Of a stretch of 64,000 bases of DNA, positions 10,006-55,687 are shown piece after piece. A model generated the notes under the pieces. It did no database searches. It saw only the letters and a list, made by a program, of their open reading frames with translations, and was not told the DNA's origin. Every line of letters begins with the position of its first letter. The stretch's first letter is position 1. Position numbers and translations under genes: made by a program. The stretch is from a virus. Where the stretch lies: positions 11,355-75,354 of the IMG/VR virus record IMGVR_UViG_3300042482_000702; one strand, given 5' to 3'.

Positions 10006-11712
10006 TTATTTATTTTTTAAATTAACCATATAAGAACATACCTCATCAAACCAACCATTTCTTTTTGCACCTTTGTAAGCACCTGAGTATAATTTTTGAA
10101 ATTCTGTTTTTGACCTACATTTTAAGGCAATCATTTCAACATTTTCTTTAATATCCCAATGCCCTATACTTTGTTTAGTTAATACCATATGCGAACATAC
10201 TTCATCCAACCACCCGTTTTTTAATGCCGAATTGTATGCCCCCCCGCAATGTTTGGAAAACTCAGACCTATTTTTATACTTCAATGATTCCTTTTTAATA
10301 TCCTCAATATTACCCCATTTTGAATTAAACTTTGGATATATGGAAAACACCTCATCCGACCATCCATTACTTCTAACAATCAAATAAGCTCCGGGACAAG
10401 ATTTTTTAAATTCTGTCTTTGACTTATATTTTTTCGCCTCATCTTTAATATCCTCAATGGTTTTCCATTTCCCATATAATATTTCCATATGAGAACATAC
10501 TTCATCTAACCAACCATTTCTTTTTGCGGATTTATACGCTGAAACATATAATTTATTAAATTCTGATTTTGTGTTACATTTTTTTGCAACCGTTTCAACA
10601 TTTGATTTAATATCCCAATATCCCATATCACCTTGTATTAGGTTTTCTTTAGGAAATAGAATATCCAACCAACCATTTCTATAAGCACCTTCGGATGCCG
10701 CTCTACATCCCCTCGCAAATTCTTTTCGGATTCTATATTTCACAGCTTCTTTTTGGACATTTTCAAAAATATCCCACTGACCACTCCTTAACACCATATG
10801 AGAACAAACCTCTTCTAACCAACCATTTTTGCGAGCAATTGATGAAGCCCCACCTGAATATCTATGGAAATCACTCCTATTGTCAAAAGTTAGCGCAATT
10901 TCTTTTATAGATTCTAAATCCCACATTCTTGAATAACTTCCTAAAGAACCGGATTTGGCTATGTTTACGGGATTGTAACCTAATTCAATGTAATTATCAA
11001 CCCATTTTTGTTCATATTCACCAGCAATATTAACATCAACAGGGGTTTCAGTAATTAATCTAAATATTGGAGAACCATATTCTTTTATGGTCTTAAATAC
11101 AATACAACTTTCAGTATTAAGATGTTCATTTTTCCTTCTTTTATAGTTTTCGGTTAAACCCACATAAACAAGTTTTACTTCTTCCCATATGAACGCGTAA
11201 ATATATCTAGGGGAGTCATTTATGTTTGGAGTCATATGTGAACAAACTTCATCATACCAACCTTTTCTACGAGCAATTTCAGCAACATATTTATGTTTAC
11301 CCTGACAAAAATCACTTCTATTATCATACATTAGAGCAATATCTTTAATCGATTCAAAATCCCACTTACTTTCACCTTTTTTAATCCCACATTTAATAAT
11401 CATATGTGAACAGACCTCATCAATCCAACCTTTTCTTACCGCTTGGAGATACGCTCCAGTATTTTGTTCATTAAATTCTGTTCGTGTTTCATATTTTAAC
11501 GCCACCTCCCAAACAGATTCTTTATTCCAAGAATTATTTCTTTTTTTAATAAGAGGTTGAGTTAATTCATCATACCAACCATTTTTTAGTAAAGAGTTAA
11601 GAATAGAAGTGCCTTGTAATTCATTAAGGTATGTCATATTAGATATACCCACCTTACATCTTTCGTATGTCCAATAACCGTAGGGTTTTTTTTCAGGTTT
11701 ATTTTCTATCAT
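10006..11712 (-). CDS. GIY-YIG domain protein flanked by ~11 tandem NGW.DEVCSHM repeats (568 aa)
   Basis: Central YIYAFIWEEVKLVYVGLTENYKRRKNEHL GIY-YIG core; repeated ~45-aa units ending (K/R)(N/K)GW(L/Y/F)DEVCSHM on both sides. Confidence 0.55.
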   Translation of the reverse strand: MIENKPEKKPYGYWTYERCKVGISNMTYLNELQGTSILNSLLKNGWYDELTQPLIKKRNNSWNKESVWEVALKYETRTEFNEQNTGAYLQAVRKGWIDEVCSHMIIKCGIKKGESKWDFESIKDIALMYDNRSDFCQGKHKYVAEIARRKGWYDEVCSHMTPNINDSPRYIYAFIWEEVKLVYVGLTENYKRRKNEHLNTESCIVFKTIKEYGSPIFRLITETPVDVNIAGEYEQKWVDNYIELGYNPVNIAKSGSLGSYSRMWDLESIKEIALTFDNRSDFHRYSGGASSIARKNGWLEEVCSHMVLRSGQWDIFENVQKEAVKYRIRKEFARGCRAASEGAYRNGWLDILFPKENLIQGDMGYWDIKSNVETVAKKCNTKSEFNKLYVSAYKSAKRNGWLDEVCSHMEILYGKWKTIEDIKDEAKKYKSKTEFKKSCPGAYLIVRSNGWSDEVFSIYPKFNSKWGNIEDIKKESLKYKNRSEFSKHCGGAYNSALKNGWLDEVCSHMVLTKQSIGHWDIKENVEMIALKCRSKTEFQKLYSGAYKGAKRNGWFDEVCSYMVNLKNK

Positions 11713-18255: not shown

Positions 18256-18819
18256 TTAAAGTCTCACAGGTATCTTATGTTTGGTACCATCAGTCCTTGA
18301 ATATACTGCGTGTTGTGGCGTCATCATCATTTCATTATGTTCATCACCCAACATATTAATATAATCATTACCTTTACCAGGTTTAAGATATGCAATTGTC
18401 ATATGTGGATGATAGTCCGGATAATCACTTGTGAATGGAAATTGTTTTAAATCCTCGTTTGTTTCATTTAAACTATCCCCCATTATATCATACTTTAATA
18501 CATCATATTTCGGGTTGTTGAAACAAGATAGATTATGAGCTTTACAATTTGTGTATGTATATTTGTTTAACACATTAATTATGTCGTCAATACTCACCTC
18601 GTTATCGTGTAATCCGTATAGTAATGTACAATGTGATTCAGGTTCTAAACCAAACCCCTCTTCTTCGGTGTATAAATCATCAGGGTTTATTTTGTTGTGT
18701 AATTCCGCAATAGAATCAGGGTTAAAGTATAACATCGCACAAGAATAAGGATATGTTTGTTTATTCTCATTTATCCCCATCATTGTTTTGATTTTTGTTA
18801 ACTGTTCGTTTAATTCCAT
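18256..18819 (-). CDS. 2H phosphoesterase (LigT / Acb1-like cyclic-nucleotide phosphodiesterase, 187 aa)
   Basis: Two H-x-T-h motifs (ESHCTLLYG and HPHMTIAYL) at the spacing typical of the 2H superfamily; N-terminal MELNEQLTKIKTMMG leader. Confidence 0.65.
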   Translation of the reverse strand: MELNEQLTKIKTMMGINENKQTYPYSCAMLYFNPDSIAELHNKINPDDLYTEEEGFGLEPESHCTLLYGLHDNEVSIDDIINVLNKYTYTNCKAHNLSCFNNPKYDVLKYDIMGDSLNETNEDLKQFPFTSDYPDYHPHMTIAYLKPGKGNDYINMLGDEHNEMMMTPQHAVYSRTDGTKHKIPVRL

Positions 18820-42581: not shown

Positions 42582-42638
42582 ATGTTTTAGTTTCTATGGT
42601 ACAAAGATAATTCTTTTTTTGATAATACCAAACTTTTT

Positions 42639-42893: not shown

Positions 42894-42964
42894 ATTAATT
42901 TAATTTAAATTCCCGACAAAGATAATACTATTTTTGATAATACCAAGCATTTTTTTTAATTATT

Positions 42965-43702
42965 TTATTGTTCCGTTGTTGGTTTCAACCATAACAATTT
43001 GTTTTCAAAAATATAATTCTTTAATGTTGGAAAATAATACAACATCTCCAAAGTTTTTAATGTGTCGTGTTTGAAACATTTTAATAGTTCCTCTCGGATT
43101 CTTTCCGTTGAAACCACCCCCATTTTATTTTCATAGTCATAGTTGTTGATATAGTAATCCAAAAACTTTAAACTAAACCCTTTTGTAATTGAGAATCTGA
43201 TAGCCCTTAAAATACGAAGAGGGTCATCATTAAAAGTTTCTTTACAAGATTTTGGAGTAATTAAAACTTTTCTTTCCAAATCAAGTCGTCCATTAAAATA
43301 ATCAATGATGGTACCATCCTCATCTTTAGCGAGAGCATTTAATGTGAAGTCACGTCTCTCTAAATCATCATATAATGTTCCCGGTTTAACGATTGGTGTT
43401 CTTGTTCCCGGAATGTACCCAACTTCTTTACGAGCCATCACAAAGTCAGCAACACCGCTATACTTGTGGTCTTTTGGGAATTTAGCTCTGATGGTAAAAC
43501 AATCCGCAGTAATTAAGAAGATTTCAAACTTCTCATCTCTCAAATATTGTTCCAACATAGAGAACATAGATTCCGCAGTATCAAAGTCCTGAAGTAATTT
43601 ATCACTTGGAACCGCAACATAATCCACGTCCTTAGATTCAAGACCTAAAATCTCGTCTCTAACTTTTCCCCCGACCTCATAAAACTTAAACATATTTTCC
43701 AT
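42965..43702 (-). CDS. cca: tRNA nucleotidyltransferase (CCA-adding enzyme head/neck, 245 aa)
   Basis: GGKVRDEILG...DVDYV, RRDFTLNA and DDPLRILRAIRF blocks = class II nucleotidyltransferase signature. Confidence 0.85.
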   Translation of the reverse strand: MENMFKFYEVGGKVRDEILGLESKDVDYVAVPSDKLLQDFDTAESMFSMLEQYLRDEKFEIFLITADCFTIRAKFPKDHKYSGVADFVMARKEVGYIPGTRTPIVKPGTLYDDLERRDFTLNALAKDEDGTIIDYFNGRLDLERKVLITPKSCKETFNDDPLRILRAIRFSITKGFSLKFLDYYINNYDYENKMGVVSTERIREELLKCFKHDTLKTLEMLYYFPTLKNYIFENKLLWLKPTTEQ

Positions 43703-43707
43703 TTTTT

Positions 43708-43950
43708 CTATTTATTTTCATTCATTGGATATAAAATTGTTTGTAATGTCGCCTTGTACGCGGAAGATTTGAATGGGTCTTTTTGATGTTGTATCACAGC
43801 ACCCTCAAATAACTCAATCGCCTTATCTAATCCATCATATTGAGCTATCATTCTACCTGCGGCAGGAATCGTAAATGGATTACTCACTTTATGTTTATCA
43901 CATATGTTATCAATCGTCTCTTTAATTCTTTCTTGAAATGTCTTTTCCAT
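43708..43950 (-). CDS. hypothetical protein (80 aa)
   Basis: ORF. Confidence 0.4.
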   Translation of the reverse strand: MEKTFQERIKETIDNICDKHKVSNPFTIPAAGRMIAQYDGLDKAIELFEGAVIQHQKDPFKSSAYKATLQTILYPMNENK

Positions 43951-44294
43951 TATCGTTTAATTACATAATTATTTGACTGATATGTGGTAGTTTTTCTTTC
44001 TTTCTTTTCAATCCAACCATCTCTCAACACTCTTTTAACCGGACCTAATCCAAACCAACTTTTATAATCTTTAAAGGCGCTGTCCGTAAATAATTCTTCC
44101 TTACCCAATTCACTACTAAACATATTACATTCCATAATACATTTTTCACCGGTAATATTAATTACACCAAGTTCATCATCAATCTCAACAACAACATTAT
44201 AATGTTTATCAAAATTATTATAGTCGGAAGTATTGATTGTTACCGAACCATAACGATAAGAAACACCACATTTATCAAAAGTTAATTTTCTCAT
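43950..44294 (-). CDS. hypothetical protein (114 aa)
   Basis: ORF. Confidence 0.45.
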   Translation of the reverse strand: MRKLTFDKCGVSYRYGSVTINTSDYNNFDKHYNVVVEIDDELGVINITGEKCIMECNMFSSELGKEELFTDSAFKDYKSWFGLGPVKRVLRDGWIEKKERKTTTYQSNNYVIKR

Positions 44295-44461
44295 AATTTA
44301 TTTTTAAGTTTCTTAATTTTTAATCTTGACCATCTTACACCTAATTCATTCTCTTTCATTACCATCTCCCTATATACTAAATTCCACCACCAAAGCAATA
44401 TTTTGTTTAACATATTAATTTATTTTAAGCAAAGATAATACTATTTTTGATATAAACAAAA

Positions 44462-44497
44462 AAAACCTCAACAAATTTTACTCTGTTGAGGTTTTTA
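44462..44497. terminator. rho-independent terminator
   Basis: CCTCAACA-aattttactc-TGTTGAGG flanked by A8/T5. Confidence 0.5.
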
Positions 44498-44564
44498 TTA
44501 TACCAACCATAGAAAGGGGTTGTTGGCTGAATGAGTATATAAATATGTTGTAAAATTAGAAAAG

Positions 44565-44990
44565 TTAATCTTTTTTTAACAATCTCATAATTAATTTACA
44601 TAATTGGTCGTTTTTATTATCAAATGGTAGATTTTCAAGGTTAAAATACCCACATTCGGTATGTTCTTCACCATCTTTTGCATTTTCTAAATCCGGATTT
44701 ATTGGTTCGTCTGTTTCCATCATAAAAACATACATCAAACCTTTTATTTCCGAACCTTCACGATTATATCTCTTAACAAACCCAACTAATTTTAAATCAT
44801 TATCTAATGTATAGTTAGTCTCTTCTTTGAATTCGCGTTTTACACCATCCATAGGGTGTTCCCCCTTTTCCAAATGACCACAAGGAATACTCCATTGTCC
44901 TGGTAACTCACCTGTAGCGTTTCTTTTACAAAGCAAAACCTCATCACCACATTTAACTATTACCCCGGAATATCGTTTAACCTCTTTCAT
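44565..44990 (-). CDS. NUDIX hydrolase (141 aa)
   Basis: Nudix box GHLEKGEHPMDGVKREFKEETN (Gx5Ex7REuxEExGu). Confidence 0.75.
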   Translation of the reverse strand: MKEVKRYSGVIVKCGDEVLLCKRNATGELPGQWSIPCGHLEKGEHPMDGVKREFKEETNYTLDNDLKLVGFVKRYNREGSEIKGLMYVFMMETDEPINPDLENAKDGEEHTECGYFNLENLPFDNKNDQLCKLIMRLLKKD

Positions 44991-45002
44991 TTTATTAAAT
45001 TT

Positions 45003-45359
45003 ATGATATTTATCTATATGATTATAAATATAGGTAATTCAGAATTCAATGTCAAAGTAGTTTTTTCAAAAAAAGATACATCAAATGGTATGATGGGTAA
45101 AAGATTTGATAAAACCTTTAATGGTATGTTATTTTTAATGTCCGATGGTCAACACGGATTTTGGATGAAAGATTGTGTTATACCTTTAGATATTATTTTC
45201 ATATCAGATAATGTAATTACAAAAATATACCATAATTGTCCACCTTGTAATACCAACGAATGTAAATCATATATTGGTGAAGGAGATACAATCCTTGAAG
45301 TTCAAGGGAACACCTGTAAAAAATTAGGTATTAAAATTGGTGATAAAGTATCCGCATAA
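45003..45359 (+). CDS. DUF192-like small protein (118 aa)
   Basis: FWMKD..IPLDIIF...PC...C pattern reminiscent of COG1430/DUF192. Confidence 0.35.
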   Translation: MIFIYMIINIGNSEFNVKVVFSKKDTSNGMMGKRFDKTFNGMLFLMSDGQHGFWMKDCVIPLDIIFISDNVITKIYHNCPPCNTNECKSYIGEGDTILEVQGNTCKKLGIKIGDKVSA

Positions 45360-45384
45360 AAAATGACCCATTATAGGTCATCTC

Positions 45385-46794
45385 TTATTTTTTTGTTTCA
45401 ATTTTACTTTGTAATACTTTCACAAACTCATTCTGAATCATTTTAACAAACTTTACATAAGGAGAATCGTCAGAGTCCGGATTGTATTTATAATCACCTT
45501 TTGGTGGACGAGTACTTCTACCCATAAAATTTAATCCCGATATGTTTGTAATACATTTGTGTCCTCCACTATTAGATTGGATGAAGTCCCAAGCATTTAC
45601 TTTAATATCATCCAACATCTTTCTATGTTCTTCAGGTAATTCAGAAAAAGGTTTTTCCATCATCTCACCAATGTGAACTAATTTTCCCTTACCATCTTCC
45701 ATTGTCTTATATTCTTTACCATATAAAGCAACAAAATCTTTAAAAGTAAACCCAACTGATTCCCCACTAAAATCTTTCGACGATTCCGATATCCACTTAA
45801 TTGTTGATAAAGGAATTTCTCTTTGTTTTAATTGGTCTTCCCATTTAGATAAAACTTCTTGAGCTATCTCACCTAAATTAACACCTTTTAATTCTCGTTC
45901 TTTTTTAAATGGATTACAGGACGCTTGAACTAACCCTAATGGCCAAGCAATAACTATAAAGTCAGCTTCAGGGTTATTTTTAAATGGTGTATATCTATCG
46001 TAAGAACCTGGTTTAAACATTGACCCACCACCATACTGAACAATAATATTACCCAATACTTTAACATTGGGATTGGTTTTCATTGACTCAACATAGTCTT
46101 CTTTATTTTTTTCAAGTTGTTCAGGTTTCGCATAACCTTTTTCAACCATTATTCTTTTGATGTTGTGTAATATGTTTAACAATGATGGTGTTGATTTCAT
46201 AACCAACTCATCTAAAAACCCAGGTTTGTTTTTAAAAGCTAACAACAATTTATTAGCAACTAATCCCATCGCAGTTTTATTTTTAGACAAAGATTTTTCT
46301 TTATCTAATCTAAATAAATAAGAAATTACTTGGTCAACACTAATATCATTTATAGCGTAATTAGCTGAATCTACAGTAGAGATAAGTAATATATCTTCAT
46401 TTGGAAATATATCTCGTGGAGAGACTATTTGAGATAATGTCTCAACATTTGACCGAGAAGGTCTAAACGATGTTGATGTAGTTTCTTCCGCACCAGCTTG
46501 TCTATCGTGGTGGTCTGTGTGAATCATAAACATTGGTTTACCGTGAGCAAAATCTACCAACACTGGCATAATATCACCACTAGCATCAGGTTTTTTAACC
46601 GCAAATTCTTTATCACCGTATTGGATAATCTCACAATCAACGACTTGAATACCATTACTCTCGAGATATTGTTTCATAGCAATTGCTGAAACAACACCAT
46701 CAAGGTCCATATGATAATATATCTTAGCCTTCTGATATCTTTTAGCAAGAGATTTTATTTCCCTTATCCCACTCTCAATAATTAATTTTTTCAT
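45385..46794 (-). CDS. DHH-family phosphoesterase (NrnA/RecJ-like, 469 aa)
   Basis: DHH motifs: YYHMDLDGVVSA (DxD), VLVDFAHG, and MIHTDHHD (DHH); long C-terminal DHHA1-like region; leader MKKLIIESGIRE. Confidence 0.6.
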   Translation of the reverse strand: MKKLIIESGIREIKSLAKRYQKAKIYYHMDLDGVVSAIAMKQYLESNGIQVVDCEIIQYGDKEFAVKKPDASGDIMPVLVDFAHGKPMFMIHTDHHDRQAGAEETTSTSFRPSRSNVETLSQIVSPRDIFPNEDILLISTVDSANYAINDISVDQVISYLFRLDKEKSLSKNKTAMGLVANKLLLAFKNKPGFLDELVMKSTPSLLNILHNIKRIMVEKGYAKPEQLEKNKEDYVESMKTNPNVKVLGNIIVQYGGGSMFKPGSYDRYTPFKNNPEADFIVIAWPLGLVQASCNPFKKERELKGVNLGEIAQEVLSKWEDQLKQREIPLSTIKWISESSKDFSGESVGFTFKDFVALYGKEYKTMEDGKGKLVHIGEMMEKPFSELPEEHRKMLDDIKVNAWDFIQSNSGGHKCITNISGLNFMGRSTRPPKGDYKYNPDSDDSPYVKFVKMIQNEFVKVLQSKIETKK

Positions 46795-47745: not shown

Positions 47746-48105
47746 TTAATCTAAACCTAAAAAATGAATACCTTTATCTATAATACTACCTTCTTGAGAT
47801 ACACAATCTTTAAAGATTTGAACATCCGAGTCAGGCATTTTATTTTGTGTTGCAGGACCCCAAACACCATCAACAGGATAAACACCAATTTTTGATTGAT
47901 ATTTACTCAACGCTTGTTTAACACTATCACCCAAAAGTCCATCAACTTTTAATGGTTGGTTTTTATCATCTCTGTGTCCTTTTTTATTTAAAAAACATTG
48001 GATACCCTTTTTTAATTCAGGACTCTCATTTTGTTCAGTAACCAATCCGTATATAGAACGGATGTCACTTCTTTCTTCTTCGGAAATTATAAATCTTTTT
48101 GCCAT
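47746..48105 (-). CDS. peptidoglycan-binding domain protein (119 aa)
   Basis: VDGLLGDSVKQALSKYQ...VDGVWGPAT = PG_binding_1 repeat signature. Confidence 0.5.
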   Translation of the reverse strand: MAKRFIISEEERSDIRSIYGLVTEQNESPELKKGIQCFLNKKGHRDDKNQPLKVDGLLGDSVKQALSKYQSKIGVYPVDGVWGPATQNKMPDSDVQIFKDCVSQEGSIIDKGIHFLGLD

Positions 48106-48148: not shown

Positions 48149-49048
48149 TTATAACACCTCTTCTTTTAATTCTAATTTTGTCTGTTTCTTATCATCAATG
48201 AATGCTTGAACTCTTTTCCGAGCAACTTCCGTATAATCCGGAGATAACTCAATCCCCACCCATCGTCTCTCTAAAACTTCTGCCGCTACCGCCGATGTCC
48301 CACTTCCCATAAATGGGTCAAGAACAATATCATCCTTATATGTAAGTATCTTAATCGCCTTTCCCGGTATATCCATACTAAATGTCGCCTTGGTTAAGGA
48401 TTTTGTATCAGCAAAGTATTCCCACCTTCCAAACACCAAGTTCATAAACTCTTTCTTATCTTCATCCTTATAAACCATCTTATTTTTGATAGTTCCATCT
48501 TCCTGAATTACTTTAGTTGGTTCTCCTTCCCATTGTGATTGTCCTTTAAGTAATTTCTTACTTGTTTTCTTATAAGCTAGAATGATACATTCTTTTGGAT
48601 TATAGATGTAAGGACTAGATGCTGACATCCAACTACCCCAAGCTGTTTGTCTCACTCTATGTGGTGAATCTTCGGTAAGGTCAACCATTCCATAAAATTT
48701 AAATCCAACTTCCTTCATCTTCATCCAAAATTCAGCATTGAATAGTATTCTTCCACCTCTTTCCTGAACATTTACTTCTATTGGAACATTGATTGCTATT
48801 CTTCCATCATCCTTTAATACTCTATACGCTTCAGTTAACCATTTTGTTGTAAAATCCCAATACTCGTCCATTGGAATACTATCGTTATAGACATCGTATT
48901 TAATGTTAACCGAATATGGAGGACTAGTCACCACTAAATCAACACAACCTTCAGGAAATGTTCCCATAACCTCAACACACTCACCATTTATAATCTTTCC
49001 TGTCTCTATCATATTACTTTGCGTGGTATTCCCACTCGTTTTCTTCAT
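48149..49048 (-). CDS. DNA methyltransferase, beta class (SPPY motif, likely N4-cytosine or N6-adenine; 299 aa)
   Basis: Motif IV VVTSPPYSV near N-terminus, motif I VLDPFMGSGTSAVAA near C-terminus; no cognate endonuclease nearby. Confidence 0.75.
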   Translation of the reverse strand: MKKTSGNTTQSNMIETGKIINGECVEVMGTFPEGCVDLVVTSPPYSVNIKYDVYNDSIPMDEYWDFTTKWLTEAYRVLKDDGRIAINVPIEVNVQERGGRILFNAEFWMKMKEVGFKFYGMVDLTEDSPHRVRQTAWGSWMSASSPYIYNPKECIILAYKKTSKKLLKGQSQWEGEPTKVIQEDGTIKNKMVYKDEDKKEFMNLVFGRWEYFADTKSLTKATFSMDIPGKAIKILTYKDDIVLDPFMGSGTSAVAAEVLERRWVGIELSPDYTEVARKRVQAFIDDKKQTKLELKEEVL

Positions 49049-49313: not shown

Positions 49314-49499
49314 TTACTCTTCTATAAGATTGATATCAGTCGGAATTGAATCCACATCTTCGTAAATACAATCACCCCAATCTTCCTCAAACTCATCCCA
49401 AAATTCATCCGGACTTTCTCTATATTGTTTTAATTCATCATCTGATAGTTCATACTCATAGATGAAATTTGTTGTCTCAATTTTTTGTAATTTTGCCAT
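49314..49499 (-). CDS. very acidic small protein (61 aa)
   Basis: ORF, Asp/Glu/Trp-rich. Confidence 0.35.
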   Translation of the reverse strand: MAKLQKIETTNFIYEYELSDDELKQYRESPDEFWDEFEEDWGDCIYEDVDSIPTDINLIEE

Positions 49500-49526
49500 T
49501 TTTTTATATTTAATTTTGTTTATTTT

Positions 49527-50021
49527 CTAAATTTTCATAAAAATATTAGTGTAATATTTTTTACCATCTAAATTAGGTCTTATTGATATTCCAAAATGAG
49601 TGTAATCCCCAATTACATTTTCTTTATGTGTAGGGCTATTTAACCAACCATTTAAAACTCCTTTAGCTGTGCTATAATTATAAGCCACATTTTCCCCAAC
49701 TCTTTTAGCCCCTAAAGTAGAAACTAAATCTTCTTGTCTACCAACAAAACCATTATGATTAGTAAAATTTCCATTAATCATGTAAGTAGTGTGTTTTTCT
49801 GATATGTAAGAAATATAATTACTTATCTTTAAAGGTATTAATCCTACACTTACTCTATAATCATTAATGATTGACATAGTTTCTAATTCTATAATACTAT
49901 GGTCATATGTTATTTCTTTTTGATTTGAAATTGGTGATGGTTTTTGAGACTTAACACGGGAGTCTATAAAATACTTTCCTACTATAGCAATTATTACGAC
50001 GGCAATTATTACAAATTCCAT
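49527..50021 (-). CDS. membrane-anchored CAP/SCP/PR-1-like domain protein (164 aa)
   Basis: N-terminal TM; GENVAYNYSTAKGVLNGWLNSPTHKENVIGDYTHFG resembles bacterial SCP-like (YkwD) core. Confidence 0.5.
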   Translation of the reverse strand: MEFVIIAVVIIAIVGKYFIDSRVKSQKPSPISNQKEITYDHSIIELETMSIINDYRVSVGLIPLKISNYISYISEKHTTYMINGNFTNHNGFVGRQEDLVSTLGAKRVGENVAYNYSTAKGVLNGWLNSPTHKENVIGDYTHFGISIRPNLDGKKYYTNIFMKI

Positions 50022-50023
50022 AT

Positions 50024-50251
50024 TTAATTTTGTTTATTTTCTAAATTTTCAATTCTACGATTAAGATACCATTGAGCTTTGAGTAAATCCTCCAATTCTT
50101 TCTCCGGATATTTCTTACCCGCCCTTGAGATATATTTCACCGTATTACCCAAATGAAAATCTAAAGACCAATTTTCTATCACCTTAATGGCTTCATATGG
50201 ATTATCTACTCCCCCATAATGCTCGGGGTTTTTTACCATTTCTTTACTCAT
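50024..50251 (-). CDS. DUF3310 family phage protein (75 aa)
   Basis: NPEHYGG...IE......FHLGNTVKYISRAGKK......DLLKAQWYLNRRI pattern of DUF3310. Confidence 0.55.
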   Translation of the reverse strand: MSKEMVKNPEHYGGVDNPYEAIKVIENWSLDFHLGNTVKYISRAGKKYPEKELEDLLKAQWYLNRRIENLENKQN

Positions 50252-54256: not shown

Positions 54257-55687
54257 TTATTGGATACAAACCACATCTCGATAAGTTGCGATGTCAGCAG
54301 CACCATTAAAAATACCAGCAGCGTTTGCACCAGTTGTTGGTGATAATACAGTAATATTAGTTACAGTATTAACATTATTAACAGATATTATAGGACCCAT
54401 AAATAAAATATTTCCATCAGATAACGCAGAAATTTTATTTGAGGGGAACCATTCATTTGTTGGTTCGTTTCTATATGATGCAAATGTAGTCCAAGTTCCG
54501 TCATTTAAACCAGTAGTTAATACTCTAGCAATACCAGTTTTTGTACCCACCAGAGTTCCCACCTGTGTGAATTTACCCGCAAGAATAACTTTTCCTCCTT
54601 GACCAGGTTGGTCTAACATAGAAGTAATTGGCCCATTGCACTGTGGATACCAACTAGTGTCTAAAACACCAGCAGCACTAAGTCTAACAGGATTTAATCC
54701 TGTAGAATTAAGACTACCTACCCCAGTAAATGAAGTAGTCCCTGTGTAACCAATCATAATTCTATTATTATTGTCTAACTGCATACAGGTTATACTACCT
54801 AAACCATCATTAGTTCTCGGGAAGACTGCGACATTAGAAGATGCAAAACTAGTATCGATTACACCATTTGCAGTAAGCTTTAGGATTCCACCATATGGGT
54901 TAAGAAAATTTCCAGCAACCAATATGCTCTGTTGGTCATTAGGTTGGACTAGAACAATCTTAACTGTCCCATTTACGGAATAAAATCCACTAGAGGCAAA
55001 TGAAGTATCGGTACTTCCATTAACATTTAATCTAGCAACGTATCCAGCACCAGTAGTAGTAGTGGTTGTTACGGTATTGACATACCCACCTAAAATAAGT
55101 TTACCATCTGATTGAGTATCAACTGATAGAATTGTATAAGGGAATGAAGAGGCACCAGAAAAAGTATAATCTTTACTACCATCAGGATTTAACCGAATAA
55201 TTCTCTGTATTGTTACCCCATCGTATGACGTTACAGTACCTACAACAACTATTTTACCATTAGATTGTTTAACAATTGACATTGGACCCGGAACTCCTTC
55301 AGCAGTCGGAAAAACAGACCCAAAATTAAACCCACTCCCAACATTAAAAGTTCTATCAAGACTTAAATTATTCGTTAATTTTACTATACCTACTGAAGAT
55401 GACCCAGAATAATTACTGAAAGTACCAATAATAATAGGACCTTGTGAAAACACTAAACTATAATCTTGGGATGGTGATGTGCTACAAGTACCTAAAGGCA
55501 CCACATACCCTCTAACTATCGAAGATGTAGTAGTATATGTGTATCCTGTCAATAATTGACCTTTAGTTATATTTGATGCTAATAGGATTGGTGTGGTACT
55601 AGTACCAGTATATCCAAATAAGTTAAATGCTGATACGGCGTATGAAGACCCCGAATATTCCGCTTGTAATGTAAATCTAATATCCAT
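54257..55687 (-). CDS. Ser/Thr/Gly/Val-rich beta-rich protein, probable virion fibre/adhesin component (476 aa)
   Basis: Composition and position next to fibre genes. Confidence 0.45.
   Translation of the reverse strand: MDIRFTLQAEYSGSSYAVSAFNLFGYTGTSTTPILLASNITKGQLLTGYTYTTTSSIVRGYVVPLGTCSTSPSQDYSLVFSQGPIIIGTFSNYSGSSSVGIVKLTNNLSLDRTFNVGSGFNFGSVFPTAEGVPGPMSIVKQSNGKIVVVGTVTSYDGVTIQRIIRLNPDGSKDYTFSGASSFPYTILSVDTQSDGKLILGGYVNTVTTTTTTGAGYVARLNVNGSTDTSFASSGFYSVNGTVKIVLVQPNDQQSILVAGNFLNPYGGILKLTANGVIDTSFASSNVAVFPRTNDGLGSITCMQLDNNNRIMIGYTGTTSFTGVGSLNSTGLNPVRLSAAGVLDTSWYPQCNGPITSMLDQPGQGGKVILAGKFTQVGTLVGTKTGIARVLTTGLNDGTWTTFASYRNEPTNEWFPSNKISALSDGNILFMGPIISVNNVNTVTNITVLSPTTGANAAGIFNGAADIATYRDVVCIQ

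Follow-up and report, generated by a model that had tools for sequence, protein, structure and literature searches.

The closest described counterparts of the locus reported here are the jumbo-phage 'counter-nucleotide and RNA-repair' gene sets of Iyer et al. 2021 (PMC7824862), a computational prediction. Our locus spans positions 42965-46794 of a window of 64,000 nucleotides (nt), corresponding to positions 11,355 to 75,354 of the IMG/VR virus record IMGVR_UViG_3300042482_000702, and its main element is a gene for a divergent DHH phosphoesterase, which stands next to genes for a DUF192 protein, a NUDIX hydrolase and a CCA-type tRNA nucleotidyltransferase. The published sets share with the window a DHH phosphodiesterase, a Nudix protein, a CCA-adding enzyme and a 2H phosphoesterase, as well as the roles proposed for them, whereas this DHH subfamily is not described there, and neither are the fusions, the DUF192 partner or the polymorphism of the surrounding cassettes. 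New here are the delineation of the DHH subfamily, the partnership with DUF192, the fusions and the natural presence/absence alleles.

Among known proteins, the closest to the window DHH protein are those of the NrnA, pAp (3'-phosphoadenosine 5'-phosphate) phosphatase and PggH branch of the DHH-DHHA1 superfamily (PDB 8a8k, 7d62, 4py9, 5o1u and 8iu7). The same superfamily includes enzymes that act on immune messengers: the DHH enzyme MAD degrades cA4, as cited in PMC8284326, and the CRISPR-associated NrN degrades SAM-AMP, the AMP conjugate of S-adenosylmethionine (SAM) (PMC10600005).

A divergent DHH/DHHA1 phosphoesterase family

The four open reading frames (ORFs) and domains named in a first-pass annotation of the window are all encoded, as judged from the ORFs, Pfam and PHROG (lengths in amino acids, aa):

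45385..46794, minus strand: divergent DHH/DHHA1 phosphoesterase, 469 aa, identified by motifs, AlphaFold2 (AF2) model and fold matches
45003..45359, plus strand: DUF192 (UPF0127/COG1430) protein, 118 aa (113-118 aa), agreeing with the family in both profile and fold
44565..44990, minus strand: minimal MutT-like NUDIX hydrolase, 141 aa, PF00293 at 64 bits
42965..43702, minus strand: class II nucleotidyltransferase with head and neck only, 245 aa, with motifs GGKVRD, DVD, RRD and DDPLR

The DHH protein is composed of a DHH domain (~20-145), a helical insert (~153-239), a DHHA1-like domain (~244-420) and a C-terminal helix (445-468), and its AF2 model (pLDDT 90) contains the two-lobed DHH plus DHHA1 fold. 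The residues of motifs I-IV, which bind two metals, namely H28/D30/D32, D81, D94-H95-H96 and D142, show no variation among 38 sequences of 29-65% identity, nor do they in a further alignment built from divergent members. In structural alignments the second domain matches DHHA1 domains, and the GGGH motif for substrate binding is represented by S409-G410-G411-H412, conserved among the 38 sequences, in which R267, Y268, N294, K333 and E337 are also invariant. The PF01368 score of 22.3 bits does not reach the gathering cut-off of 28.1, which reflects the divergence of the DHH domain and not its absence. The N-terminus is hydrophilic and runs directly into the first strand of the domain, with no signal peptide, so the leader peptide that had been attributed to this protein is not there.

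In the comparison with known structures, the highest value was obtained for the archaeal pAp phosphatase 8a8k (16.7), followed by PggH and PF0399 (14.1 each), the Bacteroides fragilis NrnA-like protein 4py9 (13.5), RecJ-Cdc45 (13.2), TM1595 (12.6), DhhP (12.5), Staphylococcus aureus NrnA/Pde2 (12.1), GdpP (10.1), bacterial RecJ (8-9.6) and the CRISPR NrN 9lq9 (7.6). At the sequence level the relationship is faint: a PDB search with the single sequence gave nothing meaningful, and one with a profile gave just PggH (E = 0.024). Identity to the NrnA/pAp-phosphatase/PggH branch is 12-16%, and the window protein is longer (469 aa, against ~310-340 aa), since it carries an extra helical insert of ~100 aa between the domains and a C-terminal helix, in place of the compact architecture with a short linker. 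It differs from that branch also in being found only in phages and metagenomes, in its DUF192 neighbour and in belonging to no PHROG or NCBIfam family.

The family counts ~4,000 proteins in a database of 5.8 billion, in 371 clusters at 50% identity, and is confined to phage or metagenome sequences; its matches in the phage collection are solely metagenomic megaphages of 634-735 kb. Taken together, these features show a catalytically intact but divergent DHH/DHHA1 phosphoesterase of a large phage and metagenome family.

The DUF192 partner and the C-terminal fusions

DUF192/UPF0127 occurs widely and is represented by two crystal structures, but to our knowledge no role has been assigned to it. 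Searches of the literature under DUF192, UPF0127 and COG1430 gave at most incidental mentions, and a DUF192 fold search, whose matches were limited to DUF192 structures themselves uncharacterised and to an assembly factor of the trypanosome mitoribosome, offered no clue to function. Its gene is the sole one of the stretch on the opposite strand, and is arranged tail-to-tail with the DHH gene, separated from it by a hairpin:

45363..45381, no strand assigned: ATGACC-N7-GGTCAT with T-runs on both sides, identified from sequence and probably a bidirectional terminator

The genomic context was compared in 154 DHH-centred loci, of which 137 have enough flank for DUF192 to be counted; several intermediate DHH representatives sit on contigs too short to inform, and the scan seeded with divergent members mostly returned the main clade again and not the distant ones. 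DUF192 is the most conserved neighbour of DHH, adjoining its 3' end on the opposite strand in 115 of these 137 loci, down to ~48% DHH identity. The most divergent DHH homologs, megaphages included, have no DUF192 alongside. An obligate co-dependence of the two genes can be ruled out, because DUF192 stays where DHH has been deleted (see below). DUF192 may modulate or partner the DHH enzyme. A cysteine cluster (C58, C79, C82 and C87, as NC...NCPPC...C) is common to the DUF192 proteins of the phage clade and is not kept in distant homologs; it may form a metal site.

Some members of the family extend beyond the DHHA1 domain, 18 of 86 full-length representatives carrying a C-terminal tail of 100 aa or more; the tails sort into 14 clusters unrelated to one another. 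In the largest of these (P0172, P0178, P0186 and P0195), three of the four members are DUF3293/S-AdoMet-lyase-like, and the other tails comprise PG_binding_1+GH19, PG_binding_1, M23 peptidase, SET, GNAT and a sigma factor of the extracytoplasmic function type. In one locus (L272), DUF192 adjoins the DHH 3' end even though the DHH protein there has an M23 tail. Under code 11, the ORFs of two of the fusions, P0178 and P0122, run without interruption. The score for S-AdoMet lyase lies marginally above the cut-off of 28, at 31.3, and the assignment comes from Pfam, as the tail of P0178 has no sequence match in the PDB. Some relatives of the window protein are fused to a SAM-lyase-like domain, and SAM lyases are an alternative to NrN as a SAM-AMP-degrading activity. 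The heterogeneity of the tails (P0121-P0195) may follow the logic of polyvalent proteins, or the tails may be accidental in-frame fusions in a deletion-prone region.

A looser association, which recurs in independent lineages, links DHH with NUDIX and with genes of nucleotide metabolism and replication, including ribonucleotide reductase (RNR), NrdDG, CTP synthase, DnaB and RecA. NUDIX is present in 78 of the 154 loci, mainly where DHH is at least 60% identical, and lies ~1.4 kb downstream of DHH in LR745206 (E = 8e-9 by hidden Markov model); the corresponding position in LR756502 has a gene with a weaker resemblance to NUDIX. It follows a CTP synthase gene in L272 and stands beside NrdD and NrdG in L271. 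The most divergent DHH members come directly after DnaB, in the block gp32, RecA, FEN, DnaB, DHH, then RNR. In one divergent relative (L087, 770-2046), the block of RecA, DnaB and DHH is preceded, at a distance of a few kb, by genes for cREC_REC and S-AdoMet lyase, so that anti-defence-type genes are found beside replication genes.

An accessory zone shaped by cassette gain and loss

The window is AT-rich (~30% GC). A relative in IMG/VR (L006/L264, 207,952 bp) is ~94% identical to it in nucleotide sequence and encodes a DHH protein 99% identical, which identifies the window as part of a jumbo phage. No match to the region was obtained by megablast in 50,697 phage records, and identification therefore proceeded via proteins. 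The host is probably a member of the Bacteroidota; a scan of 185,579 species-representative genomes with the single DHH protein found no close relative, and hence offers no direct host assignment. Pfam families among the larger ORFs of the window include ClpP, an integrase, a resolvase, a GIY-YIG protein, a nitroreductase, GH12, Endonuclease_NS, an SPFH protein, a ferritin, a DNA methylase and large tail-fibre-like proteins, a typical accessory-gene landscape. The proteins of the locus all score below cut-off in NCBIfam, DHH and DUF192 have no PHROG family, and the DHH, DUF192 and CCA proteins have no match in PADLOC.

The genes and sequence elements flanking the DHH, DUF192 and NUDIX genes are the following:

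47746..48105, minus strand: PG_binding_1 protein, 119 aa
46796..47743, minus strand: g88, protein with no family match, 315 aa, hydrophobic segment near residue 77
45027..45055, minus strand: promoter-like site TTGACA-17-TATATT (11/12 of a sigma-70-type consensus), just upstream of NUDIX and within the DUF192 5' end
44461..44496, minus strand: strong hairpin resembling an intrinsic terminator (15 pairs and a T-run, from sequence) after NUDIX, parting it from the CCA cassette
44430..44452 (element to 44460), minus strand: exact 23-nt copy of a repeat motif (repeat search), upstream edge of the CCA cassette
43950..44294, minus strand: g84, ORF with no family, 114 aa, cassette gene 1
43708..43950, minus strand: g83, ORF with no family, 80 aa, cassette gene 2
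42917..42939 (element to 42947), minus strand: exact 23-nt copy of the repeat (repeat search), downstream edge of the CCA cassette
42602-42624 (element to 42632): third, diverged copy of the repeat (repeat search)

From this arrangement we predict at least four transcription units, namely PG-binding, g88 and DHH together; DUF192; NUDIX alone; and g84, g83 and CCA together. The NUDIX start is 12 nt from the divergent start of DUF192. The promoter assigned to NUDIX is predicted solely from its agreement with the consensus, and promoter-like matches are no more numerous in the region than in shuffled sequences. The 23-nt motif is intergenic and has three copies in the window, where none is expected; on the coding strand it reads TTTG-N19-TAtcTTTG (TAnnTTTG) and lies upstream of successive small genes, and the loose form of the full motif is found 12 times in the window, against a shuffle mean of 2.8. 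It resembles what we take to be the Bacteroidota -33/-7 promoter type, which suggests, indirectly, a Bacteroidota host.

The same repeat is likely a recombination substrate for the gain and loss of cassettes. In L006 the CCA cassette of ~1.45 kb is missing, and the two blastn segments of this relative overlap on the repeat at 42917. Of the ten closest relatives, in which DUF192 is 97-100% identical, eight are devoid of the DHH gene and have g88 abutting DUF192; the junction is that of a clean deletion between the A-rich microhomologies that mark both ends of the DHH ORF. Three of the four conceivable combinations (DHH+CCA+, DHH+CCA- and DHH-CCA+) occur at ~94% DNA identity, and DHH and CCA therefore assort independently. 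Upstream of DHH, g88 is placed between it and the PG-binding gene in the closest relatives only; in 44 loci, of a clade 45-60% identical, a phage lysozyme is directly upstream of DHH, whereas the window has PG_binding_1 and then g88 instead. Together, g88 and the peptidoglycan (PG)-binding or lysozyme neighbour hint at an envelope or lysis connection.

The nucleotidyltransferase has the head motifs of CCA enzymes (A, G11-G-K-V-R-D plus D25-V-D; B, R116-R-D; PF01743 at 64.5 bits) and, in alignment with them, the neck motif D, the (E/D)DxxR nucleotide template, as D-D-P-L-R (DDPLRILRAIRF). Cellular CCA-adding enzymes have ~400 aa, and their body and tail domains, which hold the tRNA, are missing here, the model matches ending near position 220 of ~400; the best CCA equivalog score is 103 bits, with a cut-off of 290. 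The protein matches over its full length phrog_24229 'tRNA nucleotidyltransferase' (PolyA_pol head, 2.5e-59), and is 45-47% identical to annotated phage genes of ~240 aa, such as those of Cellulophaga phage phi4:1 and of Microbacterium and Synechococcus jumbo phages; homologs of this size carry annotations in many large phages. The enzyme may add CCA, CC, A or poly(A), among which the sequence does not discriminate. A tRNA call in the window, a tRNA-Leu(TAA) found by ARAGORN (89 nt, 54644-54732, minus strand), falls inside a DUF5122 beta-propeller ORF of 476 aa (54257-55687) and is probably a false positive, so that no window tRNA gene accompanies the enzyme and this link was dropped. In 80 CCA-centred loci (63-96% identity), the context is unrelated in 62, NUDIX is upstream in 18 and DHH is within 5 kb in nine, and thus the window arrangement recurs in one sublineage only. 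The gene g84 is found in four of these 80 loci, and the order of g83 and CCA is reversed in L176.

The NUDIX protein has an intact catalytic REx2EE in its Nudix box (G38-HLEKG-E-HPMDGVK-RE-F-K-EE-T-N-Y), the sole change being the last, penultimate-position glycine, replaced by asparagine. It shares fold and catalytic box with minimal hydrolases of the MutT type (MutT, NudI, T4 NudE-like), from which it differs in this residue and in having no equivalog-level match: every NCBIfam equivalog is far below cut-off, the best being MutT-like (34.9 vs 97.9), and below threshold it comes closest to MutT and NTP pyrophosphatases. Its profile and sequence matches give no specific sign of ADP-ribose (ADPR) or glycocyclic ADPR (gcADPR) as a substrate. 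It also matches the N-terminal half of the PADLOC candidate defence family PDC-S07 (1.3e-12), which may simply be the shared Nudix fold.

The idea that these genes form a coordinated module is not supported by the data, given the four or more transcription units, the independent gain and loss, and the absence of a CCA gene within 8-10 kb of DHH in any of the 154 DHH-centred loci. The opposite strand of DUF192, the terminators, the separate promoter motifs and the independent presence and absence all argue that this is not an operon-like module, and the four enzymes are neighbours through cassette shuffling in a hypervariable accessory zone, not parts of one machine. The 2H enzyme that the first-pass annotation had joined to them does exist, but 26 kb from the other genes:

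18256..18819, minus strand: Acb1-like 2H phosphoesterase, 187 aa (Pfam Acb1, 30.5 bits with a cut-off of 27; both H-x-T-x motifs, HCTL and HMTI)

Judged from its sequence, this gene is a more specific anti-signalling candidate than any gene in 42965-46794.

Other changes are seen close by. A segment of ~0.7 kb (49314-50033), which encodes a CAP/SCP-domain protein of 164 aa (PF00188) and has a further ORF of 61 aa, is missing from L006 and is another cassette-type indel of the same zone. The N6/N4 DNA methylase of the window (48149-49048) is intein-free, while in L006/L264 (L264 8152-10059) and L256-L263 the gene has an in-frame insertion of ~1 kb after ...RQTAWG, with Intein_splicing and LAGLIDADG matches, the insertion point being near 48631 of the window; in L001 the gene is broken into fragments.

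Possible functions of the DHH family

Our favoured reading, which we hold tentatively, is nucleotide recycling and pool maintenance, with the four enzymes encoded by separate accessory genes of a jumbo phage. In its activity the DHH enzyme would resemble NrnA, a pAp phosphatase or PggH: using two metal ions coordinated by the DHH motifs, it would release mononucleotides by hydrolysis of pAp and/or of short oligo- or dinucleotides that carry a 5' phosphate. This step would finish the breakdown of host nucleic acid, the window also encoding a non-specific endonuclease (Endonuclease_NS), and would supply the nucleotide pool of the phage. As a second nucleotide-pool enzyme, the MutT-like NUDIX would sanitise nucleoside di- and triphosphates or convert them, and the truncated CCA-type nucleotidyltransferase, in an unrelated cassette, would separately maintain tRNA 3' ends. 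Salvage is the most economical reading in view of the invariant active site, the fold of the protein and a neighbourhood in which genes of nucleotide metabolism and replication recur; the long vertical history of the DHH family, the natural dispensability of the gene and the window endonuclease fit it as well.

The counter-defence reading proposed for the region in the first-pass annotation finds partial support and is taken here, in place of a toolkit, as a role gene by gene, which we consider somewhat unlikely: DHH would degrade an immune messenger (cyclic oligoadenylate, cOA; cyclic di- or trinucleotides; or the SAM-AMP of type III-B CorA CRISPR), NUDIX would remove ADPR-type signals and CCA would repair tRNA 3' ends. 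In its favour are the degradation of cA4 and SAM-AMP by other DHH enzymes and of SAM-AMP by SAM lyases, the recurrence of SAM-lyase-like tails in the family, with P0178 a true single ORF, and the occurrence of type III-B CorA CRISPR systems in the Bacteroidota. The cREC and S-AdoMet lyase genes of L087, the hypervariability of the region with its presence/absence polymorphism, the intact Acb1-like enzyme of the same window, the PDC-S07 match of NUDIX and the earlier prediction for jumbo phages (PMC7824862) point the same way. The window DHH protein shares with NrN and MAD its superfamily and a Bacteroidota connection; type III CRISPR or CorA association and a membrane anchor, which are traits of the NrN/MAD type, were not found for it. 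A bolder version, which we think unlikely, is that the ~4,000-member DHH family and the convergent DUF192 form a new two-gene anti-signalling system, in which DHH would destroy an immune nucleotide messenger, such as cOA or signals of the cyclic-oligonucleotide-based antiphage signalling system (CBASS), or, most attractively because of the recurrent fusion to SAM-lyase-like domains, SAM-AMP from Bacteroidota type III-B CorA CRISPR.

A RecJ/Cdc45-like DNA enzyme, acting as a 5'-3' single-stranded DNA exonuclease or a helicase-associated factor in phage replication or recombination, is a role that we regard as quite improbable; neither the sequence signature specific to RecJ nor its additional domains (TIGR00644, archaeal RecJ equivalogs) were found in the DHH protein. 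The least probable of the readings, in our view, is a virion-delivered or envelope-associated enzyme, with the DHH core carrying variable effector domains in the style of polyvalent proteins or aiding lysis or cell-wall enzymes. The 18 of 86 representatives with tails, whose 14 clusters include cell-wall domains (M23, PG_binding_1 and GH19), the lysozyme (44 loci) or PG-binding gene directly upstream, and the typical export of bacterial DUF192 proteins (3pjy is named 'signal peptide protein') would agree with it. However, the window DHH protein has neither tail nor signal peptide, its invariant catalytic residues favour a real enzyme over a carrier, and fusions can come from accidental in-frame joining where deletions are frequent.

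A coordinated toolkit would matter little even if true, since the same roles have already been predicted for jumbo phages in the literature, and the region overall is an ordinary accessory region with one moderately interesting orphan enzyme pair. The DHH subfamily is large, abundant and restricted to phages and metagenomes, and it has been missed by phage family libraries, having no PHROG and scoring below the Pfam cut-off. The natural DHH+ and DHH- variants of near-identical phages, together with the fusions, make its function directly testable. If the anti-signalling pair were true, DUF192 would gain its first functional handle; it could, for instance, serve in regulation or inhibition, or bind the messenger or the products formed from it. 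Any functional result on DHH would give DUF192/UPF0127 its first functional context.

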